Assembly: GCF_003334315.1 (NCBI RefSeq)
Contig: NZ_QOWR01000004.1
From: Escherichia coli
Lineage (GTDB): Bacteria > Pseudomonadota > Gammaproteobacteria > Enterobacterales > Enterobacteriaceae
Length of the DNA: 64,000 bases
Reading direction: 5' to 3' (one strand)
This document shows, piece after piece, positions 42,672 to 44,428 of this stretch; within the stretch, counting starts at the first letter, position 1; each line of letters starts with the position of its first letter. The notes under the pieces were generated by a model, which saw only the letters and a program-made list of their open reading frames with translations, made no database searches and was not told the origin of the DNA. Position numbers and translations under genes: made by a program.

Positions 42672-42685
42672 TTCCGCACAAAAAC

Positions 42686-42706
42686 GACCCCGTAATATAC
42701 GGGGTC
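42686..42706. terminator. hairpin between ompW and yciE (GACCCCGTAATATACGGGGTC)
   Basis: perfect 7-bp stem between convergent stops. Confidence 0.65.
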
Positions 42707-42730
42707 AATAAGGACATGGTATAAAGGGTA

Positions 42731-43237
42731 TTATTTCTTCGCTTCTACGCCATCAGTTTCAGAGCGAATTAAAAATTTCTCAGTTGTTTGCGGAATATTC
42801 TGAATCAGCCAGTCGGCCATTTGCTTTTCCTCATTTAAAATCGCTTCGATGGTTGGAATTGAAGCTGTATCACCGGCATTTTTTGCTGCTGCTAATAGTG
42901 AGGTGTAACAGGCGATTTCAAATTGCTCGAAGACATATCCGCTAATAGAGCCTTTGACTATTTCATCAGAAGGGAATATACCACCGATTGACTGCCCAAG
43001 CGCAGCCATTTTACTCATGGAATCTTTAATGACTGAACGTGAAATGTCATTACGATCAAGAATAGTTTCCAGTTGAACAATCTGGTTTTTGGTTTCACTA
43101 AGATGTTGTTCAATACGAGCGCGTAGTTCAGGATAATTATCTATACGGCTGGCCATGGATTCAAGCATAGATTCGGCTTGCTTTTCCATTGCGTGGGCGT
43201 CACGTAACCAGTCATGATAATGTTCAATACGATTCAT
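42731..43237 (-). CDS. yciE: ferritin-like DUF892 protein YciE
   Basis: 168-aa ORF. Confidence 0.92.
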   Translation of the reverse strand: MNRIEHYHDWLRDAHAMEKQAESMLESMASRIDNYPELRARIEQHLSETKNQIVQLETILDRNDISRSVIKDSMSKMAALGQSIGGIFPSDEIVKGSISGYVFEQFEIACYTSLLAAAKNAGDTASIPTIEAILNEEKQMADWLIQNIPQTTEKFLIRSETDGVEAKK

Positions 43238-43282
43238 GAAAATGTCCTCTTTATAAAATGACTAAAAGTTAAAATTCATATT

Positions 43283-43783
43283 TCAGGCTTTATTTTCGGC
43301 TTTCTTATTTACGTTATTAATGGCCAGATCAGTCAGTTTGATGTCGGTGGCCTTTTCTTCTTCCAGGGTTTCTTTCAGAAGCTTCGCTGCTTTACGGTAA
43401 CCTAATTGTTCAGCCAGCGTCGCTAATGTCCCGTAACTGGCAATCTCATAATGCTCGACTTTCTGTGCTGCGGCAATCAGTGCGGCATCACGCACTTCGT
43501 TTTTCTCGGTACTTTCGATGACCTCATTAGCTTCTTCAATAAGACCTTCCATTGCCACACATTTCATGCGCTTAATTTTCAGGTTCGATTCGGACTCCAC
43601 AACTTGATCAATACGTTCAATCTGTCCATGAGTTTCCTCGAGGTGCGCATGAAAAGCCTGACTTAATTTTTCATTTGATGTTGCTCTTGCGAGTTTTGCC
43701 AGTGCCCGGGTTAATTGTTTTTCTGCGCTGTAGGTATCTGAAAGCAGGTGAATAAATACATCTTCAATGGTCTTCATATTCAT
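43283..43783 (-). CDS. yciF: ferritin-like DUF892 protein YciF
   Basis: 166 codons from ATG 43783 (MNMKTIEDVFIHLLSDTYSAEKQ...); track ORF 5'-extended. Confidence 0.92.
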   Translation of the reverse strand: MNMKTIEDVFIHLLSDTYSAEKQLTRALAKLARATSNEKLSQAFHAHLEETHGQIERIDQVVESESNLKIKRMKCVAMEGLIEEANEVIESTEKNEVRDAALIAAAQKVEHYEIASYGTLATLAEQLGYRKAAKLLKETLEEEKATDIKLTDLAINNVNKKAENKA

Positions 43784-43868
43784 ATTTTTCTCCAGTGAAA
43801 TCACTGCGAGCCATACGGCCCGCAGATGCAATTATCTTTATCAGCTGATATTAATAATTAACGGTGAA

Positions 43869-44048
43869 TCAGGATTTGCCTGATTTATTACCACCGCTTT
43901 GTTGACCGCCTTTTTTACCCGCTTCAGATGCGCGTTGCGGATCATTTTTAAAATTACCGCCGCTATGCTGACCGCCTTTACGGCCTGCGTCGGATGCCTT
44001 CTCACGGTCTTCGGCGAAATTTCCTGAACCACCACGATGTTCGGCCAT
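43869..44048 (-). CDS. yciG: KGG-repeat stress-induced small protein YciG
   Basis: 59 codons from ATG 44048 (MAEHRGGSGNFAEDREKASDAGRKGGQHSGGNFKNDPQRASEAGKKGGQQSGGNKSGKS). Confidence 0.85.
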   Translation of the reverse strand: MAEHRGGSGNFAEDREKASDAGRKGGQHSGGNFKNDPQRASEAGKKGGQQSGGNKSGKS

Positions 44049-44389
44049 GTTATTTCTCCCGTTGCGTTGCATTGTTTCATTAATATGAGTGTTGTGTGTC
44101 GACACTCATTAAAATTAGTCGCTAATGAGAATTAGTCAAATTAAGCGCAACGAGAAGATAGAGGGAAAATATATTTTGAGGAACATTCTGGATATATTAA
44201 CAATTACCTGAGGAATAAGTGACTTAGAGAAAATTATTGATTTTACTGGTGTTATGTTGCGGGATTAATTTGTTTGATTATATTACTGTTGGGCGGAAAA
44301 ATGACGTAAGTTGACGTTCGACCGGGGTAAGCGAAACGGTAAAAAGATAAATATTAAATGAATTTAGGATTTTTCCGGCTTCATTAAAG

Positions 44390-44421
44390 AAAGTTAAAAT
44401 GCCGCCAGCGGAACTGGCGGC
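44390..44421 (-). terminator. trp operon terminator (trp t)
   Basis: minus strand GCCGCCAGTTCCGCTGGCGGC followed by ATTTTAACTTT, just downstream of trpA stop. Confidence 0.85.
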
Positions 44422-44428
44422 TGTGGGA

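Follow-up and report, generated by a model that had tools for sequence, protein, structure and literature searches.

A sigma-S-type promoter starts transcription inside the palindrome upstream of yciG in Escherichia coli, which may be a relic of a leader hairpin

The palindrome upstream of yciG in Escherichia coli lies across the transcription start of the yciG-yciF-yciE stress operon, and we put it at about even that this palindrome is a decapitated relic, or by-product, of a leader hairpin and contributes little or nothing to regulation in E. coli. The operon has a sigma-S-type promoter (TTGACT, 16-bp spacer, C at -13, TAATTT, TAA). The literature has it silenced by H-NS through AT-rich upstream DNA and counter-activated by McbR/YncC. 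Its products are an abundant small hydrophilin, YciG, and two ferritin-like proteins of the DUF892 family. Read-through into yciF-yciE is probably lowered by a stem-loop after yciG. In the reading that we propose, the promoter of E. coli has moved onto a leader hairpin, of which the palindrome would be the vestigial positional counterpart.

The operon and its boundaries

The window, by which we mean the whole stretch of 64,000 nucleotides that was analysed, carries a yciG-yciF-yciE region that agrees with E. coli K-12 and BL21 records at 100% identity over 1851 and 3401 nt, and by identity and synteny it matches the K-12 gene order trpA-yciG-yciF-yciE-ompW; adding 1,271,987 to a window position gives the position in MG1655 (NC_000913.3). 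The locus is the known E. coli yciG-yciF-yciE general-stress operon, and its content at the gene level, including the sigma factor, the silencer and the activator, is all already known. An earlier sequence-only reading of this DNA had described three co-directional genes, and the open reading frames do all lie on the minus strand, as annotated in K-12: yciG (43869-44048, 59 aa, b1259 in MG1655), which encodes a hydrophilin-type general stress protein, yciF (43283-43783, 166 aa) and its paralogue yciE (42731-43237, 168 aa). The ATG of yciG is at 44048 and the trpA-yciG spacer is 380 nt long, with the trpA terminator hairpin (44401-44421, minus strand) as the upstream boundary of the yciG regulatory region; 3' of yciE there is an intrinsic terminator (42685-42707, minus strand) with a 10-bp stem followed by TTTTTGTG. 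This is the same locus as yciGFE(katN) of Salmonella and E. coli K-12, with katN missing as in K-12 and with no difference at the gene level; the palindrome and the stem-loops discussed below are without description in the yciGFE(katN) literature that we examined.

A conserved promoter and two concordant start sites

The core promoter, pyciG (44112-44139, minus strand), consists of a -35 element TTGACT (44134-44139), a 16-bp spacer with C at position -13 (44118), a -10 element TAATTT (44112-44117) and the triplet TAA (44109-44111). We compared the region upstream of yciG in the window with that of 21 other enterobacterial genera, using yciF-containing loci and one genome per species, and found the architecture kept in 21 of the 22 genera: TTGACT and TAnnnT, separated by 16 bp of which the last is C, and, usually, TAA directly after the -10. 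A C at -13 and a following TAA are recognised features of sigma-S promoters. The sequence-only reading had suggested looking upstream of yciG for a -10 of the sigma-S type, and such a signature is there, C-TAATTT-TAA at 44109-44118, at the proper distance from the start sites at 44103 and 44105. A sigma-70 consensus scan left pyciG unflagged because its -10 poorly matches the sigma-70 consensus, and a promoter scan found no further upstream promoter-like site on the yciG strand.

Two published data sets bear on the start itself. Salmonella pyciG is among the sigma-S-activated promoters of a transcriptome study, in which its sequence from -39 to +1 is TCAATTTGACTAATCGGTTTAACCAACTAATTTTAATAGG (PMC5437024, Fig. 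S7), and the window promoter equals it in -35, spacer length, C at -13, -10 and TAA. The Salmonella start is the seventh base after the -10 and is therefore homologous to G44105 of the window. In the same study the yciG RNA of a Salmonella rpoS mutant has a log2 fold change of -8.6. The general-stress setting proposed in the sequence-only reading was right. For E. coli MG1655, the yciG start has been placed at position 1,314,114 of NC_000913.2 on the minus strand, with a 55-nt leader and with upstream sequence that ends in CGACTAATTTTAATGAGTG (Kim et al., 2012, Table S1). This start corresponds to G44103 of the window and is backed by 2 reads, a small number, in keeping with how little yciGFE is expressed in K-12. 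The E. coli start and the base homologous to the Salmonella start agree within 2 nt and place transcription initiation at 44103-44105 on the minus strand; the supplements of Adams 2021 and Ettwiller 2016 hold no yciG start entry in either coordinate system. The remainder of the leader (44049-44102, minus strand) has a CA-rich 5' end, a (GCAAC)2 repeat at 44061-44070 and a Shine-Dalgarno sequence GGGAGA at 44055-44060.

The palindrome at the start site

The palindrome ATGAGTGT-N9-ACACTCAT occupies 44085-44109 on the two strands alike, with 8-nt arms that are 100% complementary and a 9-nt spacer. The sequence-only reading had reported this inverted repeat with the correct letters and with coordinates (44075-44099) that are 10 nt off. 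It lies 37-61 nt upstream of the yciG ATG and spans about -6 to +19 of pyciG, its centre being near +7; within it, the core GTGTCGACAC (44096-44105) is a perfect 10-bp palindrome in its own right.

The 64-kb window has 41 perfect inverted repeats whose arms are 8 nt long and whose spacer does not exceed 20 nt, versus about 20 in dinucleotide-type shuffles. For one or more of them to occur by chance, the probability is 14% anywhere in the trpA-yciG spacer (380 nt) and 2% within 100 nt upstream of the ATG. The palindrome is modestly unlikely by chance: mildly unusual, and not compelling on its own. One may ask whether the 8/8 repeat arose by pure coincidence in a CA/GT-rich stretch, with no relation to the leader hairpins that other genera possess. 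The roughly 20 repeats expected per 64 kb and the 14% for the spacer speak for this, as do the restriction of the repeat to E. coli and the fact that it was picked from a feature search across the whole window; against it stand the 2% within 100 nt of the ATG, a low level of polymorphism and a distance from the ATG close to that of the leader hairpin in other genera. Overall we regard coincidence as an unlikely origin.

The mapped starts have a direct consequence for what the palindrome could do. Both lie inside its left arm, and 2-4 of the 8 bases of that arm (GU or GUGU) are transcribed. A 5'-UTR stem-loop needs both arms in the transcript, and the E. coli palindrome does not have them there; transcripts from pyciG therefore cannot form the mRNA hairpin, and any function is narrowed to the DNA level. 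The folding energies agree: the full palindrome as RNA folds at -8.9 kcal/mol (z -3.6), and the leader that is actually transcribed folds at -3.7 kcal/mol (z +0.4 versus shuffles), without significant structure.

Within E. coli the palindrome varies little. Among 41 E. coli-type sequences from genomes and metagenomes, the 25 nt contain a single polymorphic site, G44103A, a density of 0.04 polymorphic sites per nt compared with 0.14-0.21 per nt in the flanks; this hints at constraint on the sequence, with P ~0.1 by our own estimate. G44103A was seen in the O157:H7 strain examined. It disrupts the 8-nt arm and also the inner 10-bp palindrome, and no compensating change accompanies it. Between genera the picture is different: the right arm is missing from Salmonella and from 20 other genera, making the palindrome E. 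coli-specific, and GTGTCGACAC alone is common to Salmonella and E. coli, with differing flanks, all other genera having other sequences at this place.

Regulator binding at the yciG promoter

Both H-NS, as a silencer, and the GntR-family protein McbR/YncC, as an activator that binds the yciG promoter, are named as regulators of yciGFE in papers that cite Beraud et al. (2010). The sequence-only reading had suggested that the palindrome could be a regulator site. A DNA operator would mean that a dimeric repressor, or McbR, blocks RNA polymerase by binding at the start site, either to the 25-bp palindrome or to its 10-bp core GTGTCGACAC, adding to H-NS silencing. The position is the classic one for a repressor, -6 to +19 across +1. 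The lac O1 operator overlaps its transcription start in the same way and is centred at +11. The palindrome resembles such start-overlapping operators in what it covers and in its centre near +7; the 10-bp core is kept between E. coli and Salmonella, polymorphism within E. coli is low, and some extra repression is conceivable given that the literature describes yciGFE as H-NS-repressed in K-12. Unlike lac O1-type operators, however, the palindrome is unconserved in orthologous promoters, has an odd half-site spacing and lacks a known cognate protein. Its outer arms are not conserved even in Salmonella, the O157:H7 variant leaves arm and core both broken and uncompensated, and the half-site centres are 17 bp apart, or about 1.6 helical turns. 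Such a spacing is unusual for a dimer.

McbR is described in the literature as an activator of yciG, and ChIP-seq of McbR in K-12 is said to give an AT-rich motif containing ATATAT. We searched the regions upstream of mcbA and mcbR and found no GTGTCGACAC-like site within 2 mismatches of the 10-bp core; the sole arm-like match in these two regions was ACACTTAT, with 1 mismatch, in the mcbA upstream region, and it had no partner arm. To our knowledge the palindrome has no convincing match to the consensus of CRP, Fur, LexA, PurR, Cra, NikR, OmpR or PhoB, and searching the literature for ChIP or SELEX results at yciG yielded nothing useful. A regulator site at the palindrome is unsupported by these observations: it straddles the mapped start, bears no likeness to anything upstream of mcbA or mcbR and is not kept in sequence outside E. 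coli, the last being the conservation half of what the sequence-only reading had named as counting against its proposal. We hold an operator here to be quite unlikely. If an McbR site exists at this promoter, a better candidate than the start-site palindrome would be the AT-only palindrome AAAATATATTTT (44166-44177, on the two strands alike), which lies about 61-74 bp upstream of the start in a spacer of 36% G+C and is a candidate target of McbR or H-NS, judging from its composition and from the sequence AAAATATAT that it shares with the mcbA promoter; the latter, the other classical target of McbR, carries TATTTTgtaAAAATATAT.

Leader hairpins in other genera

Outside Escherichia and Salmonella, the early part of the yciG leader forms a stable hairpin in most genera; it lies at about +8 to +41, with folding energies of -6 to -12 kcal/mol. 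Its arms fall into at least 8 unrelated types (for example GAUACG/CGUAUC, GAUGC/GCAUC, CGACAU/AUGUCG, UGAACAUGA/UCAUGUUCA and GGGGGAA/UUCCCUC), and 27 of the 47 distinct leaders that are not of the K-12 type fold better than their shuffles at p<0.05. In the group with GATACG-type arms, the arms are kept while the loop ranges from 8 to 13 nt in length; one change is compensatory, and each of the nine one-sided changes yields a G.U pair. Loop spacing that varies in this way speaks for a hairpin and against a dimeric DNA-binding site. A search of Rfam at permissive thresholds, with the E. coli locus and an Enterobacter leader, gave no relevant match. A restricted version of a GcvB-leader duplex calculation gave a weak, post-hoc lead, and its whole-molecule version was uninformative.

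These hairpins raise the question of whether the E. coli palindrome itself acts as a functional RNA stem-loop, folding in the yciG leader and stabilising the mRNA or modulating translation. The ompA leader is a 5'-UTR stem-loop that stabilises its mRNA. The early leader hairpin of most other Enterobacteriaceae is of this general kind, with the difference that it begins at about +8 to +13, away from the very 5' end; in E. coli the start lies within the 5' arm and the hairpin is absent from the RNA. The full palindrome would fold well as RNA, leader hairpins of comparable size occur in most other genera, every one-sided change in the GATACG-type group preserves pairing as G.U, and YciF of Salmonella is downstream of the RNA chaperone CspE (bioRxiv 10.1101/2023.01.20.524870). 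Against this, both start data sets put +1 in the left arm, so that 2-4 bp of stem are left, the transcribed leader does not exceed its shuffles in structure, and no promoter-like site lies further upstream on the same strand; the comparison of sense with antisense folding of the leaders (27 versus 20) gave no decisive lean towards RNA. We find a functional stem-loop in the E. coli leader very unlikely.

The reading that we prefer, that the palindrome is a relic or by-product of a leader hairpin, follows from its position. Judged from leader lengths, the 3' end of the leader hairpin lies about 26-36 nt upstream of the ATG across genera; the E. coli palindrome ends 36 nt upstream of the ATG and a small Salmonella hairpin 35 nt upstream, and on the 5' side the leaders of E. 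coli and Salmonella fall short of those of other genera by about 10-15 nt. The palindrome thus stands at leader-hairpin distance from the ATG in a leader with a shorter 5' part, and we therefore infer that it is a relic or by-product, probably without function. Several observations count against this. The arms are perfect, 8/8, at a chance of about 2% in the 100 nt before the ATG; polymorphism is low, GTGTCGACAC is shared with Salmonella although the flanks differ, and the position across +1 is operator-like; and the E. coli start rests on 2 reads. The practical result is that the palindrome is retired as a lead.

A conserved stem-loop between yciG and yciF

The spacer between yciG and yciF carries a candidate regulatory element. 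In E. coli this spacer is 85 nt long and folds at -25.2 kcal/mol (z -3.0), and the corresponding spacers of 15 other genera have z values of -2.4 to -6.7. Its second hairpin, CUGCGGGCC-GUAU-GGCUCGCAG (43804-43825, minus strand), resembles a terminator or attenuator, or a 3' stabiliser. In an alignment of 27 sequences it comprises 10 pairs, 3 of them with compensatory (double) changes, at a consensus energy of -17.7 kcal/mol; at two positions, G.U or U.G alternates with Watson-Crick pairs on the sense strand. It is a conserved G+C-rich stem with covariation, and it is kept in most of the genera compared. What follows the stem varies: in E. coli it is UGAUUUCAC, a weak U-run that a terminator scan did not call, and in many other genera UAUUUU or AAUUUUU.

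Expression data from Salmonella are consistent with a role for this element. Normalised RNA-seq counts there are 41,351 for yciG and 4,372 for yciF (same study as PMC5437024), and under bile stress YciF is downstream of the RNA chaperone CspE, a cspE mutant having compromised YciF expression (bioRxiv 10.1101/2023.01.20.524870). Both the excess of yciG over yciF RNA and the dependence of YciF on CspE would fit a partial terminator, or a 3' stabiliser, downstream of yciG, and the conserved stem-loops in the leader and between the cistrons could together explain the roughly tenfold difference and the CspE dependence. As a broader and tentative proposal, which we consider rather improbable as a whole, two cis-acting RNA elements, uncatalogued and without an Rfam match, may be present in the yciG transcript of Enterobacteriaceae: a leader stem-loop that is kept in position and structure and not in sequence, and a stem-loop after yciG, kept in both sequence and structure, that would set the yciG:yciFE ratio. 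Both would be possible targets of CspE-type chaperones, and the E. coli leader element would have been decapitated by a promoter shift, which would be one cause of the weak expression of yciGFE in K-12.

The encoded proteins

YciG has two PF10685 KGG repeats, at residues 10-30 and 32-52 (Pfam, E 4.9e-9 and 3.5e-8), and YciF and YciE both match DUF892 (PF05974) over their full length (E 5e-52 and 2.2e-50), with 25% identity between them. A KGG-repeat protein and two ferritin-like DUF892 paralogues had been recognised from the sequence alone, and the Pfam results bear this out; a scan of the three proteins against NCBIfam gave no family at E<=0.001. The further statement that the biochemical function of the cluster is unresolved is partly outdated, there being crystal structures for both DUF892 proteins (2GS4 has the same sequence as YciF, and 3OGH as YciE) and a reported ferroxidase activity for YciF of Salmonella.

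Salmonella YciF is reported to bind iron and to act as a ferroxidase through two metal sites (bioRxiv 10.1101/2023.01.20.524870). It belongs to the same family as YciF and YciE of the window (PDB 2GS4, 4ERU and 3OGH), and Q54, E113 and E143, which were mutated in the Salmonella study, are kept at the same positions in the translation of the window yciF. Compared with the Salmonella protein, E. coli YciF and YciE are predicted ferroxidase candidates on family membership, YciE with the reservation that it is 25% identical to YciF. YciG, with its two PF10685 repeats, resembles other small KGG-repeat stress proteins (YmdF, STM14_1829, con-10 and PA2146 of P. aeruginosa). STM14_1829, the Salmonella paralogue of yciG, also has the promoter architecture in common with it, together with a leader hairpin. 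A serovar-specific YhjH-YciG interaction has recently been reported.

Distribution of the cluster

The yciGFE cluster forms a 1.76-kb islet of low G+C content, 40.9% versus 49.6% for the window, and about 690 of the 5,426 complete E. coli genomes lack it. In a genome without the cluster, trpA and ompW are about 50 bp apart around a single hairpin, which may be a shared terminator; one strain lacks yciG only. The K. pneumoniae orthologues, KPN_01149-51, are listed beside orthologues of b1136 and b0608 and not beside trpA (Kim et al., 2012). Such mobility of the cluster fits its silencing by H-NS.

A conserved stem-loop between yciG and yciF

The spacer between yciG and yciF (43784-43868) carries a G+C-rich stem-loop (43804-43825, minus strand) that is conserved across genera through compensatory and G·U changes and often has a U-rich tail. 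Possible roles for this element are partial termination and 3' stabilization, either of which would account for yciG RNA being about 10-fold more abundant than yciF RNA in Salmonella. The same stem-loop is also a possible target of CspE, the RNA chaperone that acts upstream of YciF in Salmonella.

Leader and upstream region of yciG

The yciG leader includes a (GCAAC)n repeat (44061-44070, minus strand) immediately 5' of the Shine-Dalgarno sequence, with two copies in K-12 and four in strain E57 (locus L086) and metagenome contig L110, a 10-nt difference in leader length. The leader begins with a CA-rich stretch of 25 nt (GUCGACACACAACACUCAU..., 44079-44103, minus strand), and in a post-hoc test the predicted duplex between this stretch and R1, a G/U-rich region in the sRNA GcvB, reached -19.9 kcal/mol, placing the pairing in the top 1.5% relative to random 25-mers of the window.

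Leaders upstream of yciG were compared across loci L003-L018, L021, L040, and L051 and metagenome loci L091-L170. Most genera other than Escherichia and Salmonella have a hairpin at about +8 to +41, conserved in position and unrelated in sequence from genus to genus; a search of Rfam with an Enterobacter leader gave no relevant match. The Salmonella paralog STM14_1829 (L098) shares the promoter architecture of yciG and has a leader hairpin as well.

About 61-74 bp upstream of the yciG transcription start lies a perfect AT-only palindrome, AAAATATATTTT (44166-44177). Because it has AAAATATAT in common with the promoter of mcbA (L211), the other classical McbR target, the palindrome is a candidate site for McbR or H-NS. 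Farther upstream, a terminator hairpin follows trpA (44401-44421, minus strand), and the rho-dependent trp t' site lies about 250 bp downstream of that hairpin, just before the yciG promoter. The same spacer may thus serve both read-through from trp and the regulation of yciG.

Variable presence of the yciGFE islet

The yciGFE islet (42672-44428) is low in G+C (40.9%), and among complete genomes of E. coli about 13% lack yciGFE. In one such genome (L090), about 50 bp with a single hairpin separate trpA from ompW. In an O18:H1 strain yciG alone is missing, and some genomes carry IS1 or IS903 insertions at yciGFE.
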